Source: Nemertoderma westbladi
Lineage: Eukaryota; Animalia; Xenacoelomorpha
DNA: 64,000 bases
Reading direction: 5' to 3'
Assembly: GCA_032718475.1 (NCBI GenBank)
Contig: JAUCBJ010001846.1
Location: 62,001-126,000 of the forward strand
Each line of letters begins with the position of its first letter. Positions within the stretch are counted from its first letter, which is position 1. Both the position numbers and the translations under genes were made by a program. Below the pieces are notes generated by a model, which saw nothing but the letters and a program-made list of their open reading frames with translations, was not told the DNA's origin and searched no databases. Positions 40 to 56,743 of this stretch are shown here, one piece after another.

Positions 40-708
40 ATGGGAAACTCCCCGTTACTTCGCTTATTACAGCTAGCTAACCCCGCCAAACCCATTGGGG
101 GGTATTGTTATTCAGCTGGGCTTGAAGGGGCTGTGAACACTGGCCTTGTGCAAAACAAAAAAGACCTTCAAGATTGGCTAAACACCCTGCTAGGTGAGGT
201 GCTTGTGTACAATGATTGTGCCTTAATGATTCGATTAATGCAGAGTTTATGCGCATCGAACATGTCCCAACTTTTACACTGGAACCAGTATGCGCTGGCT
301 ATTTTAGGTAACCAAGAGGCCTATGACGAGTCTAGAAAAATGGGTCAAGCCTTGCTGATGCTGGCCAAAAAACTGGGTATTCAGTTGCCTGCTAAACCTG
401 TTGACACACCCATCAGTTATGTCGTTTCTTATTGTTTGGTGGGGCATGCTTGGGGTATTTCCACCAACGACCTTATTTTAACCTATTTGTGGGGGTGGTT
501 AGAAAACCAACTATCTGGGGCCATGCGCTTACTACCCATTGGCCATTATGAAACACAAAAAATAATGTTAGCAGCTGATCAAACAATCAGTGCCTCCACA
601 CAGTTGGCCAAAAAAGTGCGCGATGACCAAATGGGGAAAAGCCTGCCGTTTTTTGAGCTATTATGTGCACAACACCAAACCCAATATACGCGTTTATTTC
701 AATCTTAA
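40..708 (+). CDS. ureF: Urease accessory protein UreF (intact copy)
   Basis: [22 protein letters not shown]-terminal motif, C-terminal YTRLFQS, directly upstream of ureG. Confidence 0.9.
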
Positions 709-719
709 AAGGAGGTATG

Positions 720-1325
720 ATGAAAAAAAGCCCATTTCGAATTGGTATCGGGGGGCCTGTTGGTTCAGGCAAAACAGCATTGATTCAACAATTGTGTATG
801 AATATGAAAGACACCTATCAAATGGCCGTTGTGACCAACGACATTTACACCCAAGAAGATGCCCAATTTTTAGCCAAACACCAAGCACTAGAAGCGGACC
901 GAATTGTGGGGGTTGAAACAGGCGGGTGTCCACACACGGCTATTCGGGAAGATGCCTCCGCTAATTTAATGGCCATTGAAGGTTTGGAAAAACGCTTCGA
1001 TAACCTAGATTTAATCATTGTTGAATCAGGGGGCGATAATTTAAGTGCCACCTTTAGCCCCGATTTGGCTGATATGACCTTGTATGTTATTGATGTTTGC
1101 GCGGGTGATAAAATACCTCGAAAAGGAGGTCCAGGCATTACCCGCTCTGATTTGCTGATCATCAACAAAATGGATTTAGCCCCCTATGTGGGCGCATCGC
1201 TGGCGATGATGAAAAAAGATTCAACAAGGATGCGAGGCGATAAACCCTTTGTATTCACCAACTTAAAAACACAACAAAATGTAAACCAAGTGATTGACTA
1301 CATTCAAACCAACATGGTGCTGTAG
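720..1325 (+). CDS. ureG: Urease accessory GTPase UreG (copy 1)
   Basis: [10 protein letters not shown]-loop, ETGGCPH, ESGGDNL and NKMD motifs; SD AGGAGG at 710-715 (start 717 or 720). Confidence 0.97.
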
Positions 1326-1356
1326 GCGACAGTACATTGATTAAGTGTTACCGTTT

Positions 1357-2337
1357 TCAGTCAATTAATTGATCAACTAAGTTTAACAAGGTTTGCTGCT
1401 CGTCTTGATCCAACATGCTACCTGAAAGTATTTGGTCAACCGCCTTGCGCCAATTTTGTAAATATTGTTGGGCTTGAGAAAGGGCAGTTGTTTGGTGAAA
1501 ATGACTTAAAATTAACCGAATTTGGCTATCATCACGTTTTTTAATGTAGCTTTCTACCTGTGTCTTCAGTGTGCTGGATGCCTGCATACCTAAAATTAGT
1601 GGCAAGGTGATTTTCCCTTCCACTAAATCGTGACCAGAAGGTTTGCCTAGCACATGATCTGACGACTGATAATCCAACAGATCATCAGATAATTGAAAAA
1701 TCATGCCCACATAATAGCCATAGCGTGAAAAAATCGTACATATCTCAGGGCTTGCGCTATGAGTATGGCAAACAATTTTGCCGATTAACTCAAACAAGCT
1801 GGCTGTTTTTTTCTCAATGATTTTTAAATAATCATTGATTGATAAATCAATATTAAATGCCAAGCGCATTTGGCTGACCTCACCTTCAGCCAATACACTC
1901 ATACAATGAGAAAACTCATACCCAAGACTTGGGTCATCGGCAACCAACATCAAGGCGCGGGCGGATAAAAAATCACCCGCCAAAATACTCAATGTATTGC
2001 CCCAAACATGACGTACACTGGGTTGGTGACGCCTAAATTCAGCTTGATCGATCACATCATCATGCAGTAAAGTCGCCATGTGAATCATTTCAATTGCCGC
2101 GGCTTGTTTAAAGTCTGTCTGCACATTTGTTACATCTTTTTTTGGGTGTGTTGTCATGATTTGATCAAGCATCATCCATACAAGTGGACGAATCATTTTG
2201 CCCTGACGTGCTAAATAATAATGAATAATCTCAGCTAGCAGCGGCTCATCACTTTGAAAACAAGTGGAAAAATAGGTCTTAAACTGCTTAAAACGTTCAG
2301 CAATTTGGGTATGTTGAGCGAATATTTTTTCAAACAT
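1357..2337 (-). CDS. ispB: Polyprenyl (octaprenyl) diphosphate synthase (copy 1)
   Basis: GKMIRP, LLHDDVID...RR and FQLSDDLLD aspartate-rich motifs; likely start MFEKIF at 2337. Confidence 0.9.
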   Translation of the reverse strand: MFEKIFAQHTQIAERFKQFKTYFSTCFQSDEPLLAEIIHYYLARQGKMIRPLVWMMLDQIMTTHPKKDVTNVQTDFKQAAAIEMIHMATLLHDDVIDQAEFRRHQPSVRHVWGNTLSILAGDFLSARALMLVADDPSLGYEFSHCMSVLAEGEVSQMRLAFNIDLSINDYLKIIEKKTASLFELIGKIVCHTHSASPEICTIFSRYGYYVGMIFQLSDDLLDYQSSDHVLGKPSGHDLVEGKITLPLILGMQASSTLKTQVESYIKKRDDSQIRLILSHFHQTTALSQAQQYLQNWRKAVDQILSGSMLDQDEQQTLLNLVDQLID

Positions 2338-2348
2338 GCCTGCTTTGA

Positions 2349-2747
2349 TTACTGAACACAACTCACCACCCGTCCAACAATAATCAAAAGTGGAGACTGT
2401 AGGCGTATATTCCCCACCCAAGCCTCGGCTTTTTTCAATTGTGTTTTATAAATCTGTTGATCGGCTGTGGTACCTTTGACAATAAAAGCCATGGGGGTAT
2501 CTAGTGGCATACCGTGGTCTTTTAAATTTTTAATACAAATATCTAAACTAGCTTTTCCCATGAAAAATACCAATGTTTTAAACGGATCAATTACCTTTTC
2601 CCATGGCACTTGATAGGCGAGCTTGCCCGAACCATCGCCATGTAGGGTTAAAAACTCAACCGAATGGGCACAGTCGCGATGCGTTAGGGGAATGTTGGCA
2701 TAAGACGCACAGCCATTGGCCGCACTGACCCCTGGGACAATGCTAAA
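2349..2747 (-). pseudogene. cysG: 5'-truncated duplicate of cysG (C-terminal ~132 codons only)
   Basis: Identical to 10911-11309 and cut at the repeat/island junction. Confidence 0.92.
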
Positions 2748-2821
2748 AACAAGACTGAAAACAGGATCAAGGGGGTGTTGAGGAGGAGGGGTGTGTTATA
2801 AAGTTTAAGGGTGAAAAATAG

Positions 2822-2890
2822 TGACATTGATTTTGGAAATTATTTTTCATTTCTATTGTCATTTTTTTTCAAAATGAGTGTTAACTGAAT
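2822..2890 (+). repeat. 69-bp partial copy of the MITE-like element at 29100-29269 (right part)
   Basis: TGACATTGATTTTGGAAA...GAGTGTTAACTGAAT matches 29200-29268 at 67/69. Confidence 0.9.
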
Positions 2891-2921
2891 GAAATATAAA
2901 ATTAACTTGTCACTCAACCTG

Positions 2922-3788
2922 TCATCCTACATCCACCAAAGCCCCAAAAATACTCTCTAAATCCAGACTTAAAGATTCAATTGGACGAATCAGCATGGCA
3001 AAATACGTTTGCCAAAGAATCACACCTGCCACGCCTTGCATATTAAAACTAATGACATAGCCTGCAATCAGTGTTACAAACATCAATAAGTAGACAGGCA
3101 ATGTCAGCATAAAGTTTTCTCTTGCATTCTTTATCATCTTCAATGCGATGGTTTCATACCATTTAGGTAGATGCTCAGAGAGATGTGTTTGTTTAAGGGT
3201 TTGAATGGATTGTTCTGTTTCTTTTTCGGCTAAGTTATTCCATTGTGTTCTATTGTATTTATATTTGCCTTTTATAAAAAAGCTATAGCCCAGTACAAAC
3301 ACGACACTAAAGATACAAAGCAAAGTGATAGATAGATTGATGGTAATGCTTAAAAATATAAGGGCTAATATAATTTGCAAACATGTTCCCAATATTAAGG
3401 TAGAAGATTCTGTAAAGATTGATATATAAGCCTGTCTTGTTCTTTCAAATGTTTCAATCGCATGGTCTTTATTGATTGAATGCTTTTGCGTAGCCTGAAT
3501 GCTCTGATAAGAAAAAAGTCTTGATCCATAAATATTGAGGTAAGTTGTAACTGCATGCATTGCAATGTTGAAGATGCCAAATATAGCGGTAATGCTTAAC
3601 ATCAATATCACGCTTTTTAAAACTTCTGGTGAGGTGCTGTTGGCATCTAAAAAGAGTTGGTAAATTCCTAAAGGAAATATCATGGAAACTAAAGAAGTAC
3701 ATACAAGAAGCGTTAAGAATACATAACTTAACTTTTTAGGCAAAGTTTTAAATGCTTGTTGTAGAGTTTTGATATAAAGCTTAAACAT
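2922..3788 (-). CDS. ABC exporter transmembrane domain (lasso D-like), no nucleotide-binding domain, possibly truncated
   Basis: About 6 hydrophobic segments; ends LIRPIESLS...ALVDVG, where ABC membrane domains join the NBD; no Walker A. Confidence 0.65.
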   Translation of the reverse strand: MFKLYIKTLQQAFKTLPKKLSYVFLTLLVCTSLVSMIFPLGIYQLFLDANSTSPEVLKSVILMLSITAIFGIFNIAMHAVTTYLNIYGSRLFSYQSIQATQKHSINKDHAIETFERTRQAYISIFTESSTLILGTCLQIILALIFLSITINLSITLLCIFSVVFVLGYSFFIKGKYKYNRTQWNNLAEKETEQSIQTLKQTHLSEHLPKWYETIALKMIKNARENFMLTLPVYLLMFVTLIAGYVISFNMQGVAGVILWQTYFAMLIRPIESLSLDLESIFGALVDVG

Positions 3789-5679
3789 CTTTTAAAGTTT
3801 CTTTCACTTTGGGGCTTGTGTAGTTGGGGTGGGAGAGTTTCAGTTTGGTGGCTTTATCGTTTTTTATAAAACGAAGCCAGCTTTCTGCTATTAGTTGATT
3901 ATGCAAATAACCTGTTCGCAAAGAAGCTGGATAGCCCTTGATTCTTGAAGAGGAAAGTTCCGAATATAGAAGCTTTAGAAATTCTTTTGGCTCTACCATA
4001 TTAAATTGATACAACATGGATGCAGAAGGATTGTTGGTAAAAATATCTAATAACTTTTGACTGTCATTTCTAATCATATGAACCATCATCTCGCCATAAG
4101 ATGTTTTAAATTTTTTAGTTCTAATAGATTCAGGCATAATATTTGAGAAACTGTGTCTTTGAATTTGTTTTTCTCTTGCATATTCTTCATAAAAAGAAAT
4201 ATCTTCGTGATAAGCAATATCATAAAGAAAGTGCTGAGCAATGGAATCAAAAAATTCAATAATACGTGCATCTAGCAACGGTGTTTTGTATGGAATCATA
4301 GAACTAAAAGCATCATGAAAATAAGAAGGATACTCTTCTAAAAATAAATGTCTTTGTCTATGAGTTAGTGTTGGTTCTTTTATCCATTTGCTTTGATTCA
4401 GCAATATTTTAAAAAAAGAACTAAGATTTACTTTGCCTGATACATTGTGTTCATACATGAAAGCATTGGGAATGAAAGTTAATTTGTTTCCTAAATAAAT
4501 CAGCAAACTTAAATAGAAGGACTTAAAAGAACTATTGCCAAGTTTTTGAATCACTTTAGATATACTTGCAAAACCTTTTTGCTGCATCAAATCATCTAAG
4601 CAATATTGACTACCTTCAGTTACATAATCGCCTTCACCACTCCATATAGAATGACAACCTAATTGTACAGCTAAGTTTTCTATAATTTCTTGCCAAAAAG
4701 GAAGACTCGTTGTAGCGGGTGTATCAATTCTTCTCCATGCGTCATTTGAAGATAGGCCATGAATATGAAGTAGCTTAGAACATTCAATAGGATAAAACTG
4801 GCAAGCTGTTTGATCAGCACACTGTTTAGCTAAGCCTAAGTCGTTGGTGTTGTGAAATACAGGATCACTAAAATACATGCTAAGTGCATAATTAGATTGC
4901 TTTTTATTGGCATAAATTGCACTAGCCACGGTTGCAGAATCTAAACCTCCGCTTATTTCAATCAGTTTTTTAGATGAATCTTGTGTTGTAACGACATTTT
5001 TCATCAAGTCTTCAAACGATTCACAGGCTTCTTTGAAAGATAACTTAGTTAAATCATTAGGATAATTGGAGTAATTAGAATAAGTTTTGTGCTCAATATC
5101 TAAAATCTGTTTCTTCAGATGAAAGCTAATACATGTGCCGCTACCCAAAAGCCTGACATTTTTTAAGCAGGTATCATGAAAAGATTCTGAAATATTATTT
5201 TGAAAAGAAAGCCACTGTTGTAAGCGTTGAGCATCTACCTCTAATTCAAAATTAGGAATCAGAAGTAAAATTCTTGAATCCGTTGTAATGTAATGGTTAT
5301 TGTGAAGCGATACCACATAAAGAGGAGGGCTTGTATAAAACGATGAAATAATTAAAAACTGATTGCCTGTATAAGCTGTGGCAATATAGATGCCTGCAAT
5401 ATCTTTTCTTGCCTCATTGTAGTTATTTTTCCATCTATCATTCCATAGCTGTTTATCTATTATTGGGTTTTCAAGATTCATGTATTGATCATTAAAAGTA
5501 CAAAAGCCTTGCCCTAAAAAGTTGGCATTTAGTTTTTGATATTGGTGTCTAAAGATTGCTTTCTTAACAATGCCTGCATCTTGTAAAAAGGATTTAAAAT
5601 CATTTCCAAGCCACTCTTTGCAAGACAAATACCATTGTTTAATCAACGCTTCTTTTTTTCCAATTCCAATCATCAACAT
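3781..5679 (-). CDS. Lasso peptide cyclase (asparagine-synthetase-like, C protein)
   Basis: EISGGLDSATV PP-loop, WSGEGD, TPLLDARIIEF; 632 aa; no N-terminal Cys of true AsnB; adjacent to B2, RRE and precursor. Confidence 0.9.
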   Translation of the reverse strand: MLMIGIGKKEALIKQWYLSCKEWLGNDFKSFLQDAGIVKKAIFRHQYQKLNANFLGQGFCTFNDQYMNLENPIIDKQLWNDRWKNNYNEARKDIAGIYIATAYTGNQFLIISSFYTSPPLYVVSLHNNHYITTDSRILLLIPNFELEVDAQRLQQWLSFQNNISESFHDTCLKNVRLLGSGTCISFHLKKQILDIEHKTYSNYSNYPNDLTKLSFKEACESFEDLMKNVVTTQDSSKKLIEISGGLDSATVASAIYANKKQSNYALSMYFSDPVFHNTNDLGLAKQCADQTACQFYPIECSKLLHIHGLSSNDAWRRIDTPATTSLPFWQEIIENLAVQLGCHSIWSGEGDYVTEGSQYCLDDLMQQKGFASISKVIQKLGNSSFKSFYLSLLIYLGNKLTFIPNAFMYEHNVSGKVNLSSFFKILLNQSKWIKEPTLTHRQRHLFLEEYPSYFHDAFSSMIPYKTPLLDARIIEFFDSIAQHFLYDIAYHEDISFYEEYAREKQIQRHSFSNIMPESIRTKKFKTSYGEMMVHMIRNDSQKLLDIFTNNPSASMLYQFNMVEPKEFLKLLYSELSSSRIKGYPASLRTGYLHNQLIAESWLRFIKNDKATKLKLSHPNYTSPKVKETLKDV

Positions 5680-5684
5680 GGTAT

Positions 5685-6152
5685 TTACAATAATACTTGA
5701 TGGAGGTTATCCTGAAGGTAGTTTTCTTTTTTGATGACAGTTAATCCCCTTATTTGATTGAATATGTCTATTTGTTGTAAAGATTTTTTGGTTTGATACT
5801 CTAACCAAGCATGTTGAATAATTTTACCACCCGCTCCATCTTTTGCTACTGCGTAAACAACATAGGACTTAAAACCAAATACCCCGCAATACAAATGAAA
5901 AGCAACAGAGGCAGTTAAACAAGTTAATGCTATATTATTGTTTTCATAATTGCTTGCTACAAGTTTTCGTAAACGATTGAGCTTTTTATGGAACAAAAAG
6001 CTGATGGGTTCTTGTGGATGGAATGTGGTATCAATGTAACTGCATTGCCGACAACATTTTAAAATCGCTTTATCTGTAGTTTTAGATTCATTGAGGTTTG
6101 ATAAAAAACTAGCATGTAAGAGCTTAAAAAGTAATAAATCTTTTTTCATCAA
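5685..6152 (-). CDS. Lasso leader peptidase (B2, transglutaminase-like)
   Basis: TCLTASVA ... QHAWLEY Cys/His motifs typical of lasso B2; 155 aa. Confidence 0.88.
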   Translation of the reverse strand: MMKKDLLLFKLLHASFLSNLNESKTTDKAILKCCRQCSYIDTTFHPQEPISFLFHKKLNRLRKLVASNYENNNIALTCLTASVAFHLYCGVFGFKSYVVYAVAKDGAGGKIIQHAWLEYQTKKSLQQIDIFNQIRGLTVIKKENYLQDNLHQVLL

Positions 6153-6952
6153 AGGTTAAAGTCTGCATGTAAAGCAAATGCCCAACTGTTTGCATGAAAA
6201 CTAAATTGTTTTTTATGTTGATCTAACACATAGTGAGCACTTAAATGGCTACTTTCTATTTTTTCAATAATATTGCCTTGGCGCTTATTTTCTGCCTTTG
6301 AAATACAGCTATTAAGTAAAAGTACTTCTGCATGATGTTTTAAGGCTGTGTTTTGAAGAAATCTTATGTATTTTTGATATTTAGAATATGCATTTTTTAC
6401 AGAATAATCTCTAAAAAACAAATCAGGTAAGGCTATTAAAATACCTTTGTTATTAAGAACAGATGGAATCTTTCTAAGATAAGAAGTAATGTCATAACAA
6501 AAGATCAAATTGATTCCAAAAAATGAAGCATATTGAATCCATCTTTTTTCCAAAACGGGCATCCAACTTCTTCTATAAATTAAAATTTCAATCTGATCTT
6601 CTCTTTTTAAACGTAAATTAAAAACCAAGGAGAATATATAAGGTAATAGAAACTTACCATGAGCTGATATAACAATAAAAGGTTGATTCCATTTCTCTAC
6701 ATCGACTTCTATAAAATTTTGGAAATACTTTGCAAAAGCAATATGTTGTGAACAACATAAATAATCATAGTATACCCTCATGTTGTTGATATAACCTTTT
6801 TCCAAAAGCAACCTTTGGGCTTTAGGCAAGGTAAATCTCAAAACAAAATTATGCAGATACGCTAAAGCAGTATGAAGACATCTTTTATAAAAGGAGGTAT
6901 AAAAACTTCTTAAAAATAAATGAAGATGTAAAGACTCTACACAAGCCTTCAT
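6149..6952 (-). CDS. Divergent lipid-A/lysophospholipid acyltransferase-like protein (LpxL/HtrB-like)
   Basis: FIVISAHG, NKGILIALPD and C-terminal NSWAFALH follow the LpxL motif order; the acidic residue of HxxxxD/E is not evident. Confidence 0.55.
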   Translation of the reverse strand: MKACVESLHLHLFLRSFYTSFYKRCLHTALAYLHNFVLRFTLPKAQRLLLEKGYINNMRVYYDYLCCSQHIAFAKYFQNFIEVDVEKWNQPFIVISAHGKFLLPYIFSLVFNLRLKREDQIEILIYRRSWMPVLEKRWIQYASFFGINLIFCYDITSYLRKIPSVLNNKGILIALPDLFFRDYSVKNAYSKYQKYIRFLQNTALKHHAEVLLLNSCISKAENKRQGNIIEKIESSHLSAHYVLDQHKKQFSFHANSWAFALHADFNL

Positions 6953-7530
6953 GTTTGACTATAAAAAGCTACTTTTTCATCTTCTATTGTATAACCCATA
7001 TTTTTTAGAGCACTTCGGGCAATAGCAAATGCCTTTTTAAGAGGCATGTGGGTTAGCATCTCAAATAGAAGCAGCGTAAACAATAAAGTAGAGTTGCCAT
7101 CGGGGTAACGAGGAAAGCCAATATAGTTTTTAGTTTTATGTTCTAACCAAACATCTGCCCAAGTTTGAGTACCTGTCATACAAGCAGTAGAAAGTATCAA
7201 TTGACATTTGCTTTTGTTTGGATGTTGTGAAAGTAAAGTTTCAAGTTGTTGAGTTTGAATGAGATTATTCTCAAACTTGTACTTTAAGGGCACAGATTCG
7301 TGGACTTCAGGTAAAGAAAAACCTGCGTTGTCTTGCGAATCACTGTCTCCATGCCCGTCAATAATCAGGTAAGGGGTTTTAGGTGTTTTTGTAATATGTT
7401 TTACAAAATCATCAGCGCTTCCGATATAGTGCATCAATACTTCGTAACATAAATATTCTAAAGATGATCGTATAGCTTGAGTGGACAATGAATCACTGAT
7501 GCAAAAAATGGTTACTTTTTTGTTTTTCAC
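6949..7530 (-). CDS. Stand-alone caspase/CHAT-like (clan CD) cysteine protease
   Basis: YLIIDGHG and LILSTACMTG, i.e. His-Gly and Ala-Cys dyad motifs each after a hydrophobic strand; GTG start. Confidence 0.65.
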   Translation of the reverse strand: MKNKKVTIFCISDSLSTQAIRSSLEYLCYEVLMHYIGSADDFVKHITKTPKTPYLIIDGHGDSDSQDNAGFSLPEVHESVPLKYKFENNLIQTQQLETLLSQHPNKSKCQLILSTACMTGTQTWADVWLEHKTKNYIGFPRYPDGNSTLLFTLLLFEMLTHMPLKKAFAIARSALKNMGYTIEDEKVAFYSQT

Positions 7531-7804
7531 AAAGATTGTGTTTTTGAATTAAACCAACCTCTATTAAATCATCAATAGCCAATTGTAAATAGTTTTTAGA
7601 TGAATGTTTAGAATCGGTTACTATTTCTATTGATTCAGCTATATTTGAAAGTTCGTTTAATGTAAGTTTTTTGTTTTCTAAAATTTTTTGAACAATAAAC
7701 GTGTGAACTTCTGAAAGCTCCAATATTTCTTCGTCTTTGTGTACCACCATGTTGTTGTCTAAAACAACATGGTGCATACCACAATAAGCGTAAGCTTCTT
7801 TCAT
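7493..7804 (-). CDS. RiPP recognition element (PqqD-like, lasso B1)
   Basis: About 100 aa; LELSEVHTFIVQKI...LAIDDLIEVGLI PqqD-like pattern; directly downstream of the precursor. Confidence 0.75.
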   Translation of the reverse strand: MKEAYAYCGMHHVVLDNNMVVHKDEEILELSEVHTFIVQKILENKKLTLNELSNIAESIEIVTDSKHSSKNYLQLAIDDLIEVGLIQKHNLCEKQKSNHFLHQ

Positions 7805-7809
7805 ATAAG

Positions 7810-7974
7810 CTAACTACCGCCACCGATACTGATAGTGCCTGTATTAAAACCGGAGCCACCACCTTTAGAGCCTCTCGGACGTGTTCCGTCACCCGGTTTA
7901 TTCTTTGTTCTCTGCGTTGCAATAGCAATATCTCCATGTTTCTTAATAGGAACATAATTTAATTTTTTCTTCAT
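7810..7974 (-). CDS. Lasso peptide precursor, 54 aa: leader MKKKLNYVPIKKHGDIAIATQ + RTKNKPGDGTRPRGSKGGGSGFNTGTISIGGGS
   Basis: SD GGAGG at 7980-7984; leader has Y-x-P...G-x5-T-x with Thr at -2; Asp at core position 8; first gene of the cluster. Confidence 0.9.
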   Translation of the reverse strand: MKKKLNYVPIKKHGDIAIATQRTKNKPGDGTRPRGSKGGGSGFNTGTISIGGGS

Positions 7975-8560
7975 AAATACCTCCACAGATTTCAAAATAA
8001 GATTTTAACTTAATAAACTCCCTTATTTCAAGATACTTTTAATAAATCTACATGTTGTAAATTCTTAAAAATCATATCCCCACGCAAATAAAGCAGTATA
8101 AAAATGAATTTAGATACCAAATATGAAGCAGGATTTTTTTGCTTATTCCAGAAAAAAGCAGGGATAATCTCATCTTTAACATGGCCTTTGTTATTGAGTG
8201 CATCCCCTACCAGCAGTAATCTTTTAATCAAGAACAGACATATGAATGAAGTTGCCAGAACGCTAATATCTGTTCATTTTGATGAACAACGATACTTGAA
8301 TCCAACTTAACATGTATAGAATCGACAAATTGATAAACACACATTTGGGCTTAAAAGTAGCCCCATGAAACTATCTTTCCCCTTATTAATTGGTTGCTGA
8401 CACTATTTAACCTCCAAGTAACACCCATTTTTCTCAATTTGATTCTCCGTTTGATTCACATTCCATCATTTTCTTGAGGGTTAATGAATTAGATGTGTTG
8501 GTTGTTTTTGTGAATGCTTATGACCTATTCTTTAAACAAAACTTGATTCAACACCATTAG

Positions 8561-8755
8561 TTAAAGACATTGCGCATTACTTGGATTTGAAAGTATATAA
8601 GCAGTTTCTTCATAAGATTGAAAATCTTCAAGGCTCATTACAACAGCAGTTTTCTTGTTTTGACGAGTAATCAAAATGGGCTGATGATCATCACTGACTT
8701 TGTCTAGGTTTTTTGCTAATTGATCTCGGAATGAAGAGTAAGTAATCGTTTCCAT
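8561..8755 (-). pseudogene. yefM: Phd/YefM antitoxin, C-terminally shortened, orphan (no toxin gene)
   Basis: METITYSSFRDQLA...ITRQNKKTAVVMSLEDFQSYEETAY; 64 aa vs ~83 typical; start lies 17 bp from the island junction. Confidence 0.8.
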
Positions 8756-8772
8756 ATAAAATTTGGTTTAAT

Positions 8773-9270
8773 AATGATTGTGCCTTAATGATTCGATTAA
8801 TGCAGAGTTTATGCGCATCGAACATGTCCCAACTTTTACACTGGAACCAGTATGCGCTGGCTATTTTAGGTAACCAAGAGGCCTATGACGAGTCTAGAAA
8901 AATGGGTCAAGCCTTGCTGATGCTGGCCAAAAAACTGGGTATTCAGTTGCCTGCTAAACCTGTTGACACACCCATCAGTTATGTCGTTTCTTATTGTTTG
9001 GTGGGGCATGCTTGGGGTATTTCCACCAACGACCTTATTTTAACCTATTTGTGGGGGTGGTTAGAAAACCAACTATCTGGGGCCATGCGCTTACTACCCA
9101 TTGGCCATTATGAAACACAAAAAATAATGTTAGCAGCTGATCAAACAATCAGTGCCTCCACACAGTTGGCCAAAAAAGTGCGCGATGACCAAATGGGGAA
9201 AAGCCTGCCGTTTTTTGAGCTATTATGTGCACAACACCAAACCCAATATACGCGTTTATTTCAATCTTAA
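8773..9270 (+). pseudogene. ureF: 5'-truncated duplicate of ureF (first 57 codons missing)
   Basis: Identical to 211-708 and cut at the junction. Confidence 0.92.
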
Positions 9271-9281
9271 AAGGAGGTATG

Positions 9282-9887
9282 ATGAAAAAAAGCCCATTTC
9301 GAATTGGTATCGGGGGGCCTGTTGGTTCAGGCAAAACAGCATTGATTCAACAATTGTGTATGAATATGAAAGACACCTATCAAATGGCCGTTGTGACCAA
9401 CGACATTTACACCCAAGAAGATGCCCAATTTTTAGCCAAACACCAAGCACTAGAAGCGGACCGAATTGTGGGGGTTGAAACAGGCGGGTGTCCACACACG
9501 GCTATTCGGGAAGATGCCTCCGCTAATTTAATGGCCATTGAAGGTTTGGAAAAACGCTTCGATAACCTAGATTTAATCATTGTTGAATCAGGGGGCGATA
9601 ATTTAAGTGCCACCTTTAGCCCCGATTTGGCTGATATGACCTTGTATGTTATTGATGTTTGCGCGGGTGATAAAATACCTCGAAAAGGAGGTCCAGGCAT
9701 TACCCGCTCTGATTTGCTGATCATCAACAAAATGGATTTAGCCCCCTATGTGGGCGCATCGCTGGCGATGATGAAAAAAGATTCAACAAGGATGCGAGGC
9801 GATAAACCCTTTGTATTCACCAACTTAAAAACACAACAAAATGTAAACCAAGTGATTGACTACATTCAAACCAACATGGTGCTGTAG
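9282..9887 (+). CDS. ureG: UreG (copy 2)
   Basis: Translation identical to copy 1. Confidence 0.95.
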
Positions 9888-9918
9888 GCGACAGTACATT
9901 GATTAAGTGTTACCGTTT

Positions 9919-10899
9919 TCAGTCAATTAATTGATCAACTAAGTTTAACAAGGTTTGCTGCTCGTCTTGATCCAACATGCTACCTGAAAGTATTTGGTCA
10001 ACCGCCTTGCGCCAATTTTGTAAATATTGTTGGGCTTGAGAAAGGGCAGTTGTTTGGTGAAAATGACTTAAAATTAACCGAATTTGGCTATCATCACGTT
10101 TTTTAATGTAGCTTTCTACCTGTGTCTTCAGTGTGCTGGATGCCTGCATACCTAAAATTAGTGGCAAGGTGATTTTCCCTTCCACTAAATCGTGACCAGA
10201 AGGTTTGCCTAGCACATGATCTGACGACTGATAATCCAACAGATCATCAGATAATTGAAAAATCATGCCCACATAATAGCCATAGCGTGAAAAAATCGTA
10301 CATATCTCAGGGCTTGCGCTATGAGTATGGCAAACAATTTTGCCGATTAACTCAAACAAGCTGGCTGTTTTTTTCTCAATGATTTTTAAATAATCATTGA
10401 TTGATAAATCAATATTAAATGCCAAGCGCATTTGGCTGACCTCACCTTCAGCCAATACACTCATACAATGAGAAAACTCATACCCAAGACTTGGGTCATC
10501 GGCAACCAACATCAAGGCGCGGGCGGATAAAAAATCACCCGCCAAAATACTCAATGTATTGCCCCAAACATGACGTACACTGGGTTGGTGACGCCTAAAT
10601 TCAGCTTGATCGATCACATCATCATGCAGTAAAGTCGCCATGTGAATCATTTCAATTGCCGCGGCTTGTTTAAAGTCTGTCTGCACATTTGTTACATCTT
10701 TTTTTGGGTGTGTTGTCATGATTTGATCAAGCATCATCCATACAAGTGGACGAATCATTTTGCCCTGACGTGCTAAATAATAATGAATAATCTCAGCTAG
10801 CAGCGGCTCATCACTTTGAAAACAAGTGGAAAAATAGGTCTTAAACTGCTTAAAACGTTCAGCAATTTGGGTATGTTGAGCGAATATTTTTTCAAACAT
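9919..10899 (-). CDS. ispB: Polyprenyl diphosphate synthase (copy 2)
   Basis: Translation identical to copy 1. Confidence 0.9.
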   Translation of the reverse strand: MFEKIFAQHTQIAERFKQFKTYFSTCFQSDEPLLAEIIHYYLARQGKMIRPLVWMMLDQIMTTHPKKDVTNVQTDFKQAAAIEMIHMATLLHDDVIDQAEFRRHQPSVRHVWGNTLSILAGDFLSARALMLVADDPSLGYEFSHCMSVLAEGEVSQMRLAFNIDLSINDYLKIIEKKTASLFELIGKIVCHTHSASPEICTIFSRYGYYVGMIFQLSDDLLDYQSSDHVLGKPSGHDLVEGKITLPLILGMQASSTLKTQVESYIKKRDDSQIRLILSHFHQTTALSQAQQYLQNWRKAVDQILSGSMLDQDEQQTLLNLVDQLID

Positions 10900-10910
10900 G
10901 CCTGCTTTGA

Positions 10911-12284
10911 TTACTGAACACAACTCACCACCCGTCCAACAATAATCAAAAGTGGAGACTGTAGGCGTATATTCCCCACCCAAGCCTCGGCTTTTTTCAA
11001 TTGTGTTTTATAAATCTGTTGATCGGCTGTGGTACCTTTGACAATAAAAGCCATGGGGGTATCTAGTGGCATACCGTGGTCTTTTAAATTTTTAATACAA
11101 ATATCTAAACTAGCTTTTCCCATGAAAAATACCAATGTTTTAAACGGATCAATTACCTTTTCCCATGGCACTTGATAGGCGAGCTTGCCCGAACCATCGC
11201 CATGTAGGGTTAAAAACTCAACCGAATGGGCACAGTCGCGATGCGTTAGGGGAATGTTGGCATAAGACGCACAGCCATTGGCCGCACTGACCCCTGGGAC
11301 AATGCTAAAGGGAATGCTGTGATCGGCTAAATGCGTAATTTCCTCACCCCCCCGACCAAAAACAAATGGGTCACCCCCTTTTAATCGAACCACATGCTTG
11401 CCTGCTTGGTAATGTTCAACCATCAGATCACAAATAACCGATTGTGGAACACTTTTGCCATAGCCGCGTTTACCCACCGCAACTAACTGAGCATCTCGCC
11501 TTACAAATTCTAAAACGCCCTGACCGATTAGTTGATCATGCAACAACACATCAGCACGTCTCATCAATCGACAAGCTTTGAGTGTTAAAAGCTCAGGGTC
11601 GCCTGGCCCTGCACCCACAATTGAGACACTGCCTGTATGATGTTGACGATTATTAAACTGTTTTAAGCAAGTGTTGGCATGGGCTAACATGGCTTGATGG
11701 GTTTGATAATTCAACAATTGATCTAATTGGTCATCCAGCAAGTATTGCCAAAAACGTTTTTTGGTTTCATCCAAACGCATTTTTTGAACCAAAGGGCGTA
11801 GGGTGTCAACCACCTCAATTAACTGGGTATAAGTTTTGGGCAGTTGTTGGAGTAGGTGTTTGCGAATGCCAGCACTGAGCATGGGGGCTTTGGTGCTGCT
11901 ACTGATGGCAATTAAAAGGGGGCTGCGATCAATCACAGACGGGACAACCGCACTACAAAAATTGGGCTGGTCAACTACATTTACCAAACAGTTTGTTTGA
12001 CTTGCTTGATGATAAATTTGTTGATTAATCAAGGGGTCATCGGTTGCAGCAATCACCAAGAACTGATCCTCTAAATCACATAGGTCATAACATCGTTTGA
12101 CTAAAAATAATCGGTGGGTTTGATCGTCCAGTGTCTTAATTTCAGGTAAAATTTCGGGGGCAACAACTGTTAGTATCACACCGGCTTGATAAAGGCGTTT
12201 TGCTTTTTGAAACGCAATTTTTCCCCCACCCACAATTAAACACTTTTTTTGATGCAGGTCTAAAAAAAGGGGGTACAAACTCAT
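10911..12284 (-). CDS. cysG: Siroheme synthase (multifunctional CysG)
   Basis: YPLFLDL..IVGGG dehydrogenase domain; VGAGPGDPELLTLKA and RLKGGDPFVFGRGGEE methyltransferase motifs. Confidence 0.97.
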   Translation of the reverse strand: MSLYPLFLDLHQKKCLIVGGGKIAFQKAKRLYQAGVILTVVAPEILPEIKTLDDQTHRLFLVKRCYDLCDLEDQFLVIAATDDPLINQQIYHQASQTNCLVNVVDQPNFCSAVVPSVIDRSPLLIAISSSTKAPMLSAGIRKHLLQQLPKTYTQLIEVVDTLRPLVQKMRLDETKKRFWQYLLDDQLDQLLNYQTHQAMLAHANTCLKQFNNRQHHTGSVSIVGAGPGDPELLTLKACRLMRRADVLLHDQLIGQGVLEFVRRDAQLVAVGKRGYGKSVPQSVICDLMVEHYQAGKHVVRLKGGDPFVFGRGGEEITHLADHSIPFSIVPGVSAANGCASYANIPLTHRDCAHSVEFLTLHGDGSGKLAYQVPWEKVIDPFKTLVFFMGKASLDICIKNLKDHGMPLDTPMAFIVKGTTADQQIYKTQLKKAEAWVGNIRLQSPLLIIVGRVVSCVQ

Positions 12285-28377: not shown

Positions 28378-29413
28378 CTAAATTTTTTGCTTGGGAAAAG
28401 CACTTGAAAAGGTGATGACCTGCTGGGCGATTTGCGCAATAGCGTACTCATAAAAGGCTTGGTTTGCTTGGGTGTCACATAAGCCAAAAAGTTGTTGGCC
28501 TGCTTGGGTAAAAAGTGCTTTTCCTGTTTGTAACTGGTTGTTATCTTTTTTAGGGAACTCAAGTAATATTGGCTGCTTGTGATAAAAAAATATTGCCACC
28601 TCCATAGAGCCCATACTTTTCGTACCCTCCAACTGGATCAAACGATATTAACCCAATGGCATCTAAATGTTTTAGCGCTTTAAAATTAATCCCTTGCTCC
28701 TTGTATATTTCATTTTCATAATCAAAAATCAGAGGCACTCCATCCCCTATCACCCACACAAACTGGCAAAATTTTGTAAAAAACTTTGCATCACTTTTAT
28801 CCATCAAGGCCACTAAATTAAGCGTTCGTTTTGAATAGACGTTAGGGTTGGTAGCCTCTTTTGCCAATAAATTTGCCCAAAGTAATTGCATGATTGTATC
28901 CGATACCTTATCGCAGTGATCAAACAAATGAACCAACCAGTCTTCATCTAATTTTTCGGGCTTGGCATTTGGGGGCAGGTTTTTGATGGCTTGGGTAGTG
29001 ATTGATTCAGTATTTTTTGTTTTCGGGTTTGTTGGTGTGCCCACCAAACAGCCGCACGCTTTTCAATACCACCAACGGCTACATCCGCCTTGGCCATTAC
29101 ACTGGAGTAACACACATTCTGAAAACTACAAAAAGATACCAAAAACACTCCAACCTCAAACACACCAAAAAATCATGGCAATTTATCTATTCAAGAAAAT
29201 GACATTGATTTTGGAAAATCTTTTTCATTTCTATTGTCATTTTTTTTCAAAATGAGTGTTAACTGAATTTTATGATTTTAGCTTTTTGTCCTCGGCCTTT
29301 TTAACGATTCTTTTAGGCTCATACAAAATATCAACTGCATTGAACATTTTTTTAGAAAACACAGTTGCAGGCTTGGTTAAATCACCTAAATCAACAGAAA
29401 TATTATCTAGCAT
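28378..29413 (-). pseudogene. DUF2806-like protein, frameshifted and interrupted by a 170-bp insertion
   Basis: SD GGAGG + MLDNISVDLGDLTKPATV at 29413; continues MAKADV..., LDEDWL...VSD..MQLLWANLLAKEA..P..YSKRTL in pieces. Confidence 0.78.
29100..29269. mobile_element. 170-bp non-coding MITE-like insertion with sub-terminal inverted repeats
   Basis: 18-bp IRs at 29108-29125 and 29244-29261 (16/18), each 8 bp from the end; flanked by TTA at 29097-29099 and 29270-29272; removal rejoins the gene in frame. Confidence 0.7.
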
Positions 29414-33800: not shown

Positions 33801-34829
33801 TCAAGTCGCATGCAACACCAAATTTTTCTCAAACTCATTCAAACGCTTCCAAATGCTTCTAAGCTCGGTGATGGTTGTCCAATTATGTAAAAAAAGTGAA
33901 AAACTGCCATGCACTTTTTGAAAGGCATTGCTTACTTGCACCACCACCCCTAGCTGAATCAGCCCTGTAAACAAACTAGAGCCCACAAATAAATACGGCA
34001 CAATCATCATGAACTGATCATAAAAATTCAACCACAAATCAAAGTACCCATAATGCAAATAAAGCCGCTGATAATTAAACCGAATGCCTAAAAAAAGCTC
34101 CTTTAAGGTTTCAGGCTTGGCATAATTGATTTTATCATCCTCGCCTAGTACCAAATCTTTACGAAATGCAGCCTCAACTTTTTGGTTGTTATATTCCAAA
34201 CCGGGTAAATACCACCCCACCAACCATGAAATTAAAAGCCCACCAAGGGATACTACCAAAGCTACCCAAACCAGTGAACCATCCGCGACTTTAAGCCAAC
34301 TTAAGCCCACACTCGTGCTCAAGTTCCACAAAATCGGTAAAAAGGCCACCAAAGTCATAATGGCTCGAACAATTTGTAAGCCTAATGATTCCACAATGCG
34401 GGCAAAACGATTGCAGTCTTCTTGAATACGTTGGCTTGCGCCTTCAATTTCAGCCGTTACATTACGCCAGCGGGGAATATAGTCAAAGGTGATGGCCTCG
34501 CGCCAACGAAGACCATATATACGCGTAAACCAGCCTGTTAAAGTGGCTAAAATTACATAGGGGAAGGCCACAACCGAAAACGAGGGGTCGCCTTCAAGCC
34601 CATTGTATAAATAACTTAAAGATAGCAGGTGATCAAAAAAAAGCGTGATGCCTACCTGTGGATCATTCACATAATTGCCCGCATTTTGAAGCAAGTTATA
34701 AAACCTTCCATACCACTGGTTAATCGCTACTGTCATTTGCACCTGTAGCCACAACGACCCTAATAAAAGTAGCGCCCCACCCCATGCCCACATGGCCCAA
34801 TGCTTCGTCCAGAAAAATGCTTTAATCAT
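33801..34829 (-). CDS. SbmA/BacA-like peptide transporter
   Basis: AINQWYGRFYNLLQ, IEGASQRIQED, NNQKVEAAFRKDLVLGED and WTTITELRSIWKRL motifs. Confidence 0.88.
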   Translation of the reverse strand: MIKAFFWTKHWAMWAWGGALLLLGSLWLQVQMTVAINQWYGRFYNLLQNAGNYVNDPQVGITLFFDHLLSLSYLYNGLEGDPSFSVVAFPYVILATLTGWFTRIYGLRWREAITFDYIPRWRNVTAEIEGASQRIQEDCNRFARIVESLGLQIVRAIMTLVAFLPILWNLSTSVGLSWLKVADGSLVWVALVVSLGGLLISWLVGWYLPGLEYNNQKVEAAFRKDLVLGEDDKINYAKPETLKELFLGIRFNYQRLYLHYGYFDLWLNFYDQFMMIVPYLFVGSSLFTGLIQLGVVVQVSNAFQKVHGSFSLFLHNWTTITELRSIWKRLNEFEKNLVLHAT

Positions 34830-50706: not shown

Positions 50707-52032
50707 ATGCAAGACCAACTACCAAAAGTGTGGACTGAATGTGTGGATAGTCTAAAACAAATTGTATCTGAAACAAAGATCAATTTATGGATACATTCTT
50801 TGCAAGCAGAGTTGGCGGATAATTGCCTAACTTTATTGGCACCTAACCAAATTTATCACGACCATGTCCAAAAACATTTTTTAGAATTAATTAAGGAGCT
50901 GGTGAGTGCTATTTCTAAAAATACAATCACCATTAAATTGCAAATTAAAACAAACGACTTAAAACTTAAACCAGACAATACTTCGCATAAACAACTTATT
51001 AAAGCTAAAAAAAGCCCATTTAAAAAAGAGTATACATTTAAAAATTTAGTGATTGGCAATGCCAATCAATTGGCGATTGAAATTGCTATCAAAATCGCCA
51101 ACACCCCCCTTAATTTAGAATATAACCCCTTTTTCATTTATGGGTCATCAGGCTTGGGTAAAACTCATTTAATGCACGCCATCGCCAACACTATTTTAGA
51201 AAAATTTAAAGATATTAAAATTGCTTACATTGAAAGCCAAAACTTTGTTAAAAGTTTTATTAGCGCCCTTAAAAATAAAAAAATCGACCAATTCAGCGAA
51301 TATTACCAATCGCTAGATGTTTTACTGATTGATGATATTCATTTTTTTGCCCATAAAGGGGGCTCTCAACAAGAATTGTTTTATACCTTCAACTCTCTGT
51401 TTAATGCAAAAAGCCAAATTATTTTAAGTGCTGATCAATTCCCTAGAGAAATTAACGGGTTGGAAGACCGTCTAAAAACACGATTCGGTGCAGGCCTTAC
51501 AGTTTCTATCAAACCCCCTGAGTTAGAGATGAGAATGACCATTCTCAAAGAAAAAGCTAAACAAAAAAAGATTAAAATTAGTGACGATGCCACTTTATTG
51601 ATTGCAAAAAATGTGCAATCCAGTATTCGTGATCTAGAAGGTATTATTAATAGACTGCAAGCCTATCAAAAAATTAAAAAAGAACTGATTGATATCAACT
51701 ATGTTAAAAAAACAATCGGTGATTTGCTCTCTACCTACACAAACCTTGTAACCATTGAAAAAATACAACAAGTAGTATGCCAATATTTTCAACTATCGCT
51801 TAAAGAAATTTTATCCAGCAGCCGTTCAAAAAAAATTGTTAGAACCCGACAAATCGCCATGTTTTTATGCCGAGAACTCACCAATAAAAGCCTACCTGAA
51901 ATTAGCGTAAGTTTTGGAAAAAAAGATCATACCACCGTGTTATATGCCTGTCGAAAAATTGAAACTATTAAAAATAACAACCAAGAATTTATTCTTGATC
52001 ACATCACAAAAATTAAACAAATACTGTCTTAA
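50707..52032 (+). CDS. dnaA: Chromosomal replication initiator DnaA
   Basis: YNPFFIYGSSGLGKTHL, LLIDDIHF, RQIAMFL and KDHTTVLYA motifs. Confidence 0.99.
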   Translation: MQDQLPKVWTECVDSLKQIVSETKINLWIHSLQAELADNCLTLLAPNQIYHDHVQKHFLELIKELVSAISKNTITIKLQIKTNDLKLKPDNTSHKQLIKAKKSPFKKEYTFKNLVIGNANQLAIEIAIKIANTPLNLEYNPFFIYGSSGLGKTHLMHAIANTILEKFKDIKIAYIESQNFVKSFISALKNKKIDQFSEYYQSLDVLLIDDIHFFAHKGGSQQELFYTFNSLFNAKSQIILSADQFPREINGLEDRLKTRFGAGLTVSIKPPELEMRMTILKEKAKQKKIKISDDATLLIAKNVQSSIRDLEGIINRLQAYQKIKKELIDINYVKKTIGDLLSTYTNLVTIEKIQQVVCQYFQLSLKEILSSSRSKKIVRTRQIAMFLCRELTNKSLPEISVSFGKKDHTTVLYACRKIETIKNNNQEFILDHITKIKQILS

Positions 52033-52184
52033 AAAGTTGTGAATAAAAACTGTATATCTACAAAAAATTTGTTTTTAACAAACTATTCACAGTATTTAAT
52101 TTTTACTTTTCCTTAGTAACTACTATTAATTTTTTGTTTTTTATATAATCATATTCATACTTTTACTACTAAACTTTAATATAT
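52033..52184. promoter_or_regulatory. Candidate oriC (dnaA-dnaN intergenic region)
   Basis: Perfect DnaA box TGTGAATAA at 52038-52046; 1-mismatch boxes at 52072-52080 and 52083-52091; then a very AT-rich tract with TACTACTATT (DnaA-trio-like). Confidence 0.65.

Positions 52185-53294: not shown

Positions 53295-56743
<3,449 letters not shown>

Follow-up and report, generated by a model that had tools for sequence, protein, structure and literature searches.

A probable lasso peptide operon with a lariocidin/triculamin-like core, divergent enzymes, and a different accessory gene set

We describe a seven-gene operon (A, B1, X193, Y267, B2, C, and D, in that order) in a stretch of 64,000 nucleotides (nt), hereafter the window, that is taken from an assembly of the animal Nemertoderma westbladi (GenBank GCA_032718475.1, contig JAUCBJ010001846.1, positions 62,001 to 126,000). 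The operon is very probably a lasso peptide biosynthesis cluster whose precursor carries a core like those of lariocidin and triculamin. With less assurance, we favor the view that it makes a cationic lasso peptide of the lariocidin/triculamin type by the canonical leader-dependent route, using divergent enzymes and a different accessory set.

A sequence-only reading of the window had pointed to seven co-oriented, overlapping or closely abutting open reading frames (ORFs), and these exist as described, on the minus strand (Table 1). From the ATG of A to the stop codon of D they span positions 7974 to 2922, with overlaps of 38, 4, 4, and 8 nt and two gaps of 5 nt each. The motifs named in that reading are likewise present: KPGDG in A, C78 and H114-A115-W116 in B2, SGGLDS (S243 to S248) in C, and H60-G61 and C117 in X193. 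The preferred start of A has the sequence GGAGG 7 nt 5' of its ATG at 7974, and the promoter-like sequence TTGAAA-18-TAAAAT located farther upstream is one of the two best-matching sites between positions 2600 and 8900, a ranking by match to consensus only. We count this coupling of tightly packed ORFs, a ribosome-binding site, and a promoter-like site in favor of a lasso pathway.

Table 1. Features of the window considered in the text; positions are those of the 64,000-nt window, and functions are predicted.
Feature	Position	Strand	Remarks
A, precursor	7974-7810	-	54 residues from ATG
Parts of precursor A			leader, residues 1-21 (Gly at -8, Thr at -2); core from Arg22; ring acceptor Asp29, core position 8; extension, residues 40-54
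B1, probable leader-binding RRE (PqqD-like)	7804-7493	-	103 residues; directly after A
X193, putative tail-processing His/Cys peptidase, CHAT-like (caspase fold)	7530-6949	-	193 residues
Y267, protein of unassigned family	6952-6149	-	267 residues
B2, putative leader peptidase (transglutaminase-like Cys protease)	6152-5685	-	155 residues
C, putative Asn-synthetase-like lasso cyclase	5679-3781	-	632 residues; PP-loop SGGLDS intact
D, membrane domain of an ABC-exporter-like protein	3788-2922	-	288 residues; no ATPase domain
Promoter-like site 5' of A	8002-8031	-	TTGAAA-18-TAAAAT; 10 of 12 consensus positions
B1-like gene fragment 5' of A	8228-8350	-	BLASTP match to B1 residues 12-37
Short yefM antitoxin gene	8561-8755	-	64 residues; PhdYeFM_antitox E 1e-21; PRK11409 positions 1-64 of 83
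69-nt host-type repeat just 3' of D	2822-2890		97% identical to 29200-29268
Low-GC insert with the operon	2748-8772		6,025 bp, between the repeat copies
Left repeat copy	211-2747		exact, 2,537 bp; 3' part of ureF, ureG, polyprenyl synthase, 3' part of cysG
Right repeat copy	8773-11309		100% identical to 211-2747; runs into full-length cysG (10911-12284)
dnaA-dnaN-recF-gyrB, chromosomal origin region	50707-56743	+	only gyrB scanned; other three named by size and order

A hallmark of the triculamin/lariocidin peptides is a nearly invariant PGDG at the ring Asp, together with a wealth of basic residues (PMC12070363); the window precursor has both, with a calculated net charge of +5 over core residues 1 to 16. 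Its sole two NCBIfam matches (expectation value [E], 0.006 to 0.009) are to NF050022, the lariocidin/triculamin core domain, and NF050021, the lariocidin family. Leader included, its identity with two lariocidin-family precursors of Bacillus wiedmannii is 46% and 39%, and in that alignment M1, K3, K4, L5, K11, G14, T20, and the run KPGDGTR are invariant; nine consecutive core residues, KNKPGDGTR, are identical to those of one precursor encoded on the B. wiedmannii plasmid p536. Precursors of canonical lasso clusters are judged by a Thr at position -2 and an Asp or Glu at core positions 7 to 9, and here Thr20-Gln21 precedes Arg22 and the acidic residue is Asp29. Because the precursor aligns with precursors that pass NF050021, cleavage is predicted after Gln21, the ring between Arg1 and Asp8, and the family-typical end of the core at residue 39. 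The core opens with Arg1 and Thr2; Lys occupies positions 3 and 5, and Lys16-Gly17 is followed by 16 more residues. Residues 40 to 54 are 15 extra, Gly/Ser-rich C-terminal residues that occur in none of the compared precursors. The precursors published for the triculamin/lariocidin family have a leader or a follower (PMC12070363 and the available part of preprint 10.64898/2026.07.03.736388); that of the window carries a leader plus a C-terminal extension.

The candidate cyclase C scores 29.5 bits against Pfam Asn_synthase (PF00733; cut-off, 21). A full HMMER search of 1.84 billion representative proteins returned 59 relatives at E values of ≤0.001. The best of these, P0001, is 38% identical over the full length and belongs to a five-member cluster known from metagenomes only, and all others are at most 27% identical, so on sequence grounds the cyclase is nearly an orphan. 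When C was aligned with 31 relatives, 30 of the 32 sequences matched NCBIfam NF033535, the lasso isopeptide-bond-forming cyclase, and the PP-loop residues S243, G244, G245, D247, and S248 were conserved; the profile of this alignment finds AsnB-type structures in the Protein Data Bank (PDB), in which direct phmmer searches with C and B2 found nothing relevant. P0001 and four further close relatives of the cyclase (P0060 to P0063) have SAEVSS in place of the window's SGGLDS, and in the P0001 lineage ATP binding may thus have been lost or put to a different use. Other searches with C were negative: a word-indexed protein search gave no match among 5,051 candidates, a scan of genome contigs gave 42 pattern matches and no relative, and scans of metagenome contigs with the C alignment and with P0060 gave 320 and 49 pattern matches, respectively, and no relative. 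A scan of viral contigs gave none. Among 72,556 plasmids, the best tblastn match was the cyclase encoded on p536, which is 23% identical.

The putative leader peptidase B2 matches Transglut_core3 (PF13471) at an E value of 5e-5 and 23.6 bits (cut-off, 26) and the lasso B2 model NF033537 at 22.2 bits (cut-off, 33). Its only matches above noise are to lasso B2 and transglutaminase-core families, and C78, S82, H114, A115, W116, and E118 are invariant between it and two annotated lasso B2 proteins. The labels that A, B2, and C had been given stand, although for B2 the profile scores, unlike the motifs, fall short of the curated cut-offs. The case of B1 is more mixed: it has no match in Pfam or NCBIfam, and BLASTP against one lasso PqqD protein gave nothing, but hhalign against two annotated lasso PqqD proteins aligns 61 collinear columns at an E value of 0.0055 (probability, 6.6%). 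In terms of profiles, C passes Pfam Asn_synthase, B2 lies below threshold in the lasso B2 families, and B1 matches none. Taken together, A, B1, B2, and C look like a lasso cluster of the canonical type, as the sequence-only reading had proposed, though most of the proteins miss curated thresholds.

Several results weigh against this reading, and we gather them here. Both NCBIfam matches of the precursor are below their cut-offs (NF050022, 17.0 bits against 27; NF050021, 15.9 bits against 40); the B. wiedmannii precursors, run as controls, pass both (37.5 and 29.8 bits for NF050022; 69.2 and 62.7 bits for NF050021). By curated cut-offs, the precursor is a relative and not a member of the lariocidin family, so the proposed lariocidin/triculamin class holds for the kind of core and for the two best NCBIfam matches but not for membership. 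Core position 2 is Thr, whereas lariocidin B and gelatinamin A use Lys2 as the acceptor of their second ring (available text of PMC13178200 and PMC11451635). C itself has no match to NF033535 at an E value of ≤0.001. A quick maximum-likelihood tree was built from C, its 31 aligned relatives, and two plasmid cyclases; it pairs C with P0001 on long branches, apart from the clade of the p536 cyclase and a Paenibacillus alvei protein. An approximately unbiased (AU) test rejects a grouping of C with the Bacillales lariocidin-type cyclases (P = 0.0058), a group named after the tree had been seen and a comparison in which long branches are in play. Since C falls outside the lariocidin-type cyclase clade, the shared core could be convergent; convergence has been argued for the triculamin/lariocidin peptide family (PMC12070363). 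The peptide appears to resemble lariocidin more closely than the enzymes do, which fits convergence without proving it.

The accessory genes and the DNA around the operon add to these points. X193 has no Pfam match at an E value of ≤10 and no NCBIfam match, and none of its relatives has a lasso gene next to it. Y267 has no Pfam match at an E value of ≤10 either; an hhalign comparison with an alignment of Escherichia coli LpxL, LpxM, and LpxP gave an E value of 0.9, tblastn on the plasmids gave nothing, and two of 401 genomes matched, which is chance level. Single-sequence AlphaFold models of the two proteins (mean predicted local distance difference test [pLDDT], 42.3 for X193 and 41.2 for Y267) were too poor for use. 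No ATPase or nucleotide-binding-domain (NBD)-like frame was found in D or in the 174 nt between the D stop codon and the repeat, and the insert holds no GNAT self-resistance gene. Finally, there is debris near the 5' end of the operon, namely, a B1-like fragment (11 of 26 residues identical and 22 of 26 positive in a 40-residue frame; E, 6e-8) and the short yefM gene, which has no yoeB toxin gene beside it.

The closest known systems are the lrc cluster of Paenibacillus sp. M2, the gel cluster of Brevibacillus gelatini, and the p536 locus. On p536, the cyclase stands with a GNAT gene, five precursors, PqqD, B2, two ABC genes, and a clostripain-related peptidase, which is the lrc/gel architecture (available text of PMC11451635 and PMC13178200). 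The five precursor genes lie in tandem at positions 5033 to 5820 of p536, are not among the features listed in its record, and comprise four with the same core and one variant. In lrc and gel, the clostripain-like enzyme (LrcF or GelP) cuts after a penultimate basic residue and forms the second ring of class V lasso peptides (available text of PMC11451635 and PMC13178200). As far as sequence predicts, the window shares with all three the leader-dependent A/B1/B2/C pathway, a leader of 20 to 21 residues with Gly at -8 and Thr at -2, an eight-residue ring on Asp8, a basic residue followed by Gly near core positions 16 to 18, and a Cys/His peptidase-like gene. It differs in that this gene encodes a 193-residue CHAT-like protein rather than an enzyme of about 425 residues from the clostripain family (C11), in the lack of GNAT, in a single D with a membrane part alone where those clusters have two full ABC half-transporters, and in the additional 267-residue gene, the precursor extension, and the Arg1/Thr2 core; its cyclase, as distant from that of p536 as noted above, lies outside the p536 clade. 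No ORF of the insert matches a clostripain model in Pfam or NCBIfam, a match that a class V cluster would lead one to expect.

Two further kinds of cluster invite comparison. The palmamin (pal) cluster of Chitinasiproducens palmae, compared by description only, has the same canonical A/B1/B2/C/D set, a PGDG core, and a Gram-negative host, whereas in the available text of PMC12070363 it is described with A, B1, B2, C, and D only and without a protease-like or 267-residue gene. Clade b of that source, to the extent available, lacks Thr at -2, and the window leader has it. The tri cluster of Streptomyces triculaminicus shares the cationic PGDG core and the presence of sequence after the core that the family-typical product lacks. 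It has no leader, B1, or B2 and has an N-terminally truncated cyclase, whereas the window has a leader, B1, B2, and a full-length cyclase; the tri follower is predicted to be helical and is needed for cyclase recognition (PMC12070363 and the available part of preprint 10.64898/2026.07.03.736388), in contrast to the short, Gly/Ser-rich extension of the window precursor. The earlier statement that the family is described mainly from Actinomycetota and Bacillota is dated, since clusters are published for Burkholderiaceae, Xenorhabdus, Photorhabdus, and Alpha- and Gammaproteobacteria; these include canonical triculamin-like clusters in C. palmae, Trinickia, Paraburkholderia, Burkholderia, Xenorhabdus, and Photorhabdus (available text of PMC12070363) and lrc-like clusters in Alpha- and Gammaproteobacteria (PMC12070363 and available text of PMC11451635). 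The idea that the present gene combination is uncharacterized has fared better: no second example turned up in the searches made.

If the operon works along canonical lines, B1 would bind the leader, B2 would cut after Gln21, and C would adenylate Asp8 and close an eight-residue Arg1-Asp8 macrolactam around the tail. X193, through His60 and Cys117, would remove the Gly/Ser-rich C-terminal extension of 15 to 17 residues, likely by a cut after Lys16, which aligns with the basic-residue-then-Gly site of LrcF and GelP, and it might join the new C terminus to Lys3 or Lys5. By analogy with those enzymes, cutting of the tail by X193 is plausible and re-ligation a guess; all told, we hold an action of X193 on the peptide's tail to be a tentative proposal and the formation of a second ring to be improbable. 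An acyl transfer by Y267, whether protective or lipidating, is likewise a guess. Export through D would require an ATPase partner from elsewhere, and we lean slightly toward doubting that the present cluster gives an exported product. The calculated monoisotopic mass is 3142.60 Da for a 33-residue lasso (18 Da less than the linear core), 1735.96 Da for a form that ends at Lys16, and 1717.94 Da for a form with a second ring. By analogy with lariocidin, the product might bind the small ribosomal subunit.

Tblastn on plasmids and genome searches found relatives of X193 in Bacillota that are about 180 residues long and 26 to 31% identical to it; they come from a plasmid of Priestia filamentosa, a Bacillus record, and five of the 401 genomes sampled from one phylum. 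A word-indexed protein search gave no match among 124 candidates. For the family alignment, we used X193 and six relatives and left out a partial sequence of 40 residues (G035) and a match on a Yersinia pestis plasmid, the latter one of three records matched by tblastn and rejected as a chance hit (E, 0.08) inside a low-complexity frame of 630 residues. H60, G61, C117, and G120 are among 20 columns that are invariant in all seven sequences, and the His-Gly and Cys motifs, which are 57 residues apart, each follow a predicted strand. Pfam CHAT (PF12770) is matched by three of the six relatives at 16.1 to 18.1 bits, below the cut-off of 24, over profile positions 211 to 264, the half that holds the Cys motif, and the protein language model Atlas places X193 in a CHAT cluster (0.95, 174 shared features). 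The clostripain family shares clan CD with CHAT. Comparison of X193 with the clostripain-related peptidase of p536 gave nonsignificant alignments (BLASTP E, ≥1.9; hhalign E, 0.064 over 11 columns), short ones that superpose the His-Gly and Cys motifs. Against the PDB, the X193 family profile returned only matches with E values of >1, and Foldseek with the low-confidence models of X193 and Y267 returned none at an E value of ≤0.001, with TM-scores of <0.35 that we treat as meaningless.

X193 thus resembles CHAT and clan CD peptidases in its His-Gly and Cys motifs and in the profile alignment of the Cys half. Its family differs from the CHAT domain in its length of about 180 to 190 residues, in having no member at the Pfam cut-off, and in comprising predicted proteases only. 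The CHAT-like label draws moderate, indirect support from the subthreshold matches of the relatives, the Atlas lead, and the motifs and none from a profile match of X193 itself, and we regard the protein as a probable minimal CHAT-like Cys/His peptidase that was recruited into the operon. Our literature search found no paper that joins "lasso peptide" with "CHAT domain," although figures of the lariocidin paper and the preprint supplements, which were outside the search, may show lrc-like clusters of Gammaproteobacteria that have other accessory genes.

For Y267, an LpxL-like acyltransferase had been suggested. In Atlas, 20 of its 30 matches are in the Lip_A_acyltrans set (0.92, 147 shared features), a result below what is typical for true members. 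The catalytic motif of LPLAT proteins is His-x4-Asp/Glu. After the Y267 His that aligns with the LpxL catalytic His comes GKFLL, whose fifth residue is not acidic, so that Y267 shows neither the PF03279 profile match nor the motif by which an LPLAT protein would be recognized. A word-indexed protein search gave no match among 392 candidates, and no paper was found that joins "lasso peptide" with "lipid A biosynthesis" and "acyltransferase." The label is therefore borne out by neither Pfam nor hhalign nor tblastn and is backed by the Atlas lead alone; an LPLAT/LpxL-like fold is only a lead. The suggested fatty acylation of the product depends on the same label and shares its lack of alignment support.

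D shows a 2+2+2 helix layout by hydropathy, and hhalign aligns it with the membrane halves of three lasso-cluster ABC proteins over 142 columns at an E value of 0.0033. Pfam gave no match, and tblastn on plasmids gave nothing. The label of an ABC membrane domain is hence weakly supported by the six-helix topology and the hhalign comparison but not by Pfam, and an ABC exporter in the full sense, a six-helix domain with an NBD, is not what we find, as the NBD is absent. In the tri, lrc, and gel clusters, a GNAT protein confers self-resistance (PMC12070363 and available text of PMC13178200 and PMC11451635). Some 26 kb from the operon, at positions 33801 to 34829 of the minus strand, the window carries a gene for a transporter of the SbmA/BacA peptide-antibiotic family (PRK12369, 464 bits; SbmA model E, 8e-85).

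The operon lies in an insert whose guanine-plus-cytosine (GC) content is 0.29 to 0.35, compared with 0.40 to 0.45 around it, and looks foreign against this background; at third codon positions, GC is 0.22 to 0.33 in the insert genes and 0.37 to 0.43 in six host genes. The patch was apparently acquired recently. It is bounded by the two repeat copies, of which the left completes ureF and the right completes cysG, and this arrangement of repeat and insert looks like a tandem duplication with foreign DNA at the junction. As the copies are 100% identical, the duplication event would be recent. The B1-like fragment probably derives from a second RRE gene that has been frameshifted, and a continuation in another frame was not significant. 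The yefM DNA is 74.6% identical to yefM on an Acinetobacter towneri plasmid. The 69-nt element next to D occurs again at positions 29200 to 29268, 3' of secA, and contigs branch at the element, as expected of a dispersed host repeat.

Conceivably, the operon is an incomplete or decaying fragment of a lasso cluster that was caught at the junction of the tandem duplication; the break would have removed its transporter ATPase, perhaps together with a resistance gene, and left it unable to make an exported or tolerated product. We take this seriously and consider it somewhat unlikely. It would account for the end of D 18 residues past its last helix, with no NBD-like frame in the following 174 nt, for the B1-like fragment and a yefM of 64 of 83 model positions that stands without a toxin gene, for an insert that ends in a host-type repeat, and for the lack of GNAT in the insert. 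Moreover, in the one public DNA run that holds the stretch, every copy of the cluster runs on into the repeat, and no second or diverged copy and no other context was seen at ≥80% likeness. Set against this, all seven ORFs are open in DNA of 29 to 36% GC, where stop codons arise easily, the frame of 632 codons among them; B2 and C have kept their catalytic motifs and X193 its His/Cys pair; and gene coupling and the ribosome-binding site are preserved. The identity of the repeat copies cuts the other way, since after so recent an event decay would not show yet. That the cluster is incomplete is, in our view, less likely than not but a serious chance.

A further possibility, which we rate as unlikely, is that X193 and Y267 are not tailoring enzymes and serve in immunity, for instance as a protease or a membrane-associated protein able to disarm peptide that re-enters the cell, or are unrelated passengers, in which case the extension would stay on the peptide or be removed by a host protease. 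The relatives of X193 in Bacillota stand alone, with no lasso genes near them, and one lies by a GNAT gene and a glyoxalase-superfamily gene; a cluster without GNAT would be expected to hold some other immunity function; and Y267 has no recognizable catalytic motif. However, the two genes, with their 4-nt overlaps, have B1 on one side and B2 on the other and so lie within the biosynthetic core and not at its edge, and the extension, whose first residue directly follows those aligned with the cut site of LrcF and GelP, needs explaining. The neighborhood in question is on P. filamentosa plasmid pBEH1 (positions 5217 to 6975), where the X193 relative lies between GNAT and a glyoxalase-superfamily gene annotated "response to antibiotic," and it hints that the small CHAT-like family may have a role in resistance.

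About equally unlikely, in our view, is that the layout of the window is merely one path through an ambiguous assembly graph, with the repeat and insert forming a unit of 8,562 bp that exists, wholly or in part, as a circle or a tandem array and not as a single integrated copy. The DNA run mentioned above may be the source of the window and so is not independent of it; no RNA run is listed. Contigs of the DNA run have depths of 32.3 and 36.8 in the chromosome flanks and 49 in the insert; the two insert-repeat junctions come to 50 and 49.7, and the repeat, collapsed into a single contig, reaches 87.5. Because the depth of the repeat equals that of flank plus insert, the 8,562-bp unit would be present at about 1.4 copies per chromosome. 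A tandem array amplified in part, a circle that has been excised, or the two together would account for this; the contigs, none of which runs across the repeat, fit each of these, and the integrated order of the pieces is a proposal. A circle sits poorly with an insert that has no replication gene, and the ends of the repeat inside ureF and cysG fit a duplication junction better than a plasmid; an array in part of the population would give equal depths. The same run also holds another context for about 220 nt of yefM, with loose ends at 8564 and 8785.

With respect to the host, the window carries, in addition to the dnaA-dnaN-recF-gyrB region, secA, murC, comEC, dsbD, and TolC-family and SbmA/BacA-family genes. 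GyrB is 54% identical to E. coli GyrB over its full length, the long insertion domain included, and the host is probably a Gram-negative bacterium, a deep-branching gammaproteobacterium. The slightly greater depth of the right flank fits nearness to the origin. No exact match to 10 window proteins was found in a collection of 15 billion proteins, Rfam gave 0 matches in the 64-kb window, and a scan of genome contigs with the polyprenyl synthase gave relatives of at most 40% identity only, mostly in Bacillota, and no empty site. A phage or plasmid origin of the window was rejected, as it carries dnaA-dnaN-recF-gyrB, secA, and murC, and a chance run of ORFs is ruled out by the 632-codon frame in DNA of 33% GC together with family-specific motifs in four of the genes.

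In summary, we favor a canonical, leader-dependent lasso pathway with divergent enzymes. The cluster is distinctive for its near-orphan enzymes, its CHAT-like gene in place of a clostripain-like one, the combination of leader and extension, the absence of GNAT and of a transporter ATPase, and its setting at a duplication junction, and it is a lead for genome mining. Lariocidin and its relatives form a new class of antibiotic scaffolds that bind the ribosome, and their second ring, the work of a clostripain-like transpeptidase, has drawn interest in peptide engineering (available text of PMC11451635 and PMC13178200). For structure-activity studies, the window offers a natural core variant (Arg1, Thr2, Pro12). 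It also brings a small Cys/His enzyme of unrelated appearance that is a candidate for processing the tail, a precursor with both a leader and a follower-like extension, and biosynthetic enzymes with almost no relatives in 1.84 billion representative proteins. It further exemplifies a route by which such a cluster can enter a chromosome, namely, where the two copies of an exact 2.5-kb tandem duplication meet. The most far-reaching combination, in which a three-part precursor (leader, core, and Gly/Ser-rich follower) gives a ribosome-targeting lasso peptide and is served by a minimal CHAT-like enzyme of 190 residues that independently replaced the clostripain-like transpeptidase, cutting the tail and perhaps re-ligating it to a Lys of the ring, and by LPLAT-like acylation, all on a recently captured, amplifiable 8.6-kb unit, is very improbable as a whole. 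If true, however, CHAT-like tail processing together with acylation would represent a tailoring logic new to class V-like lasso antibiotics.

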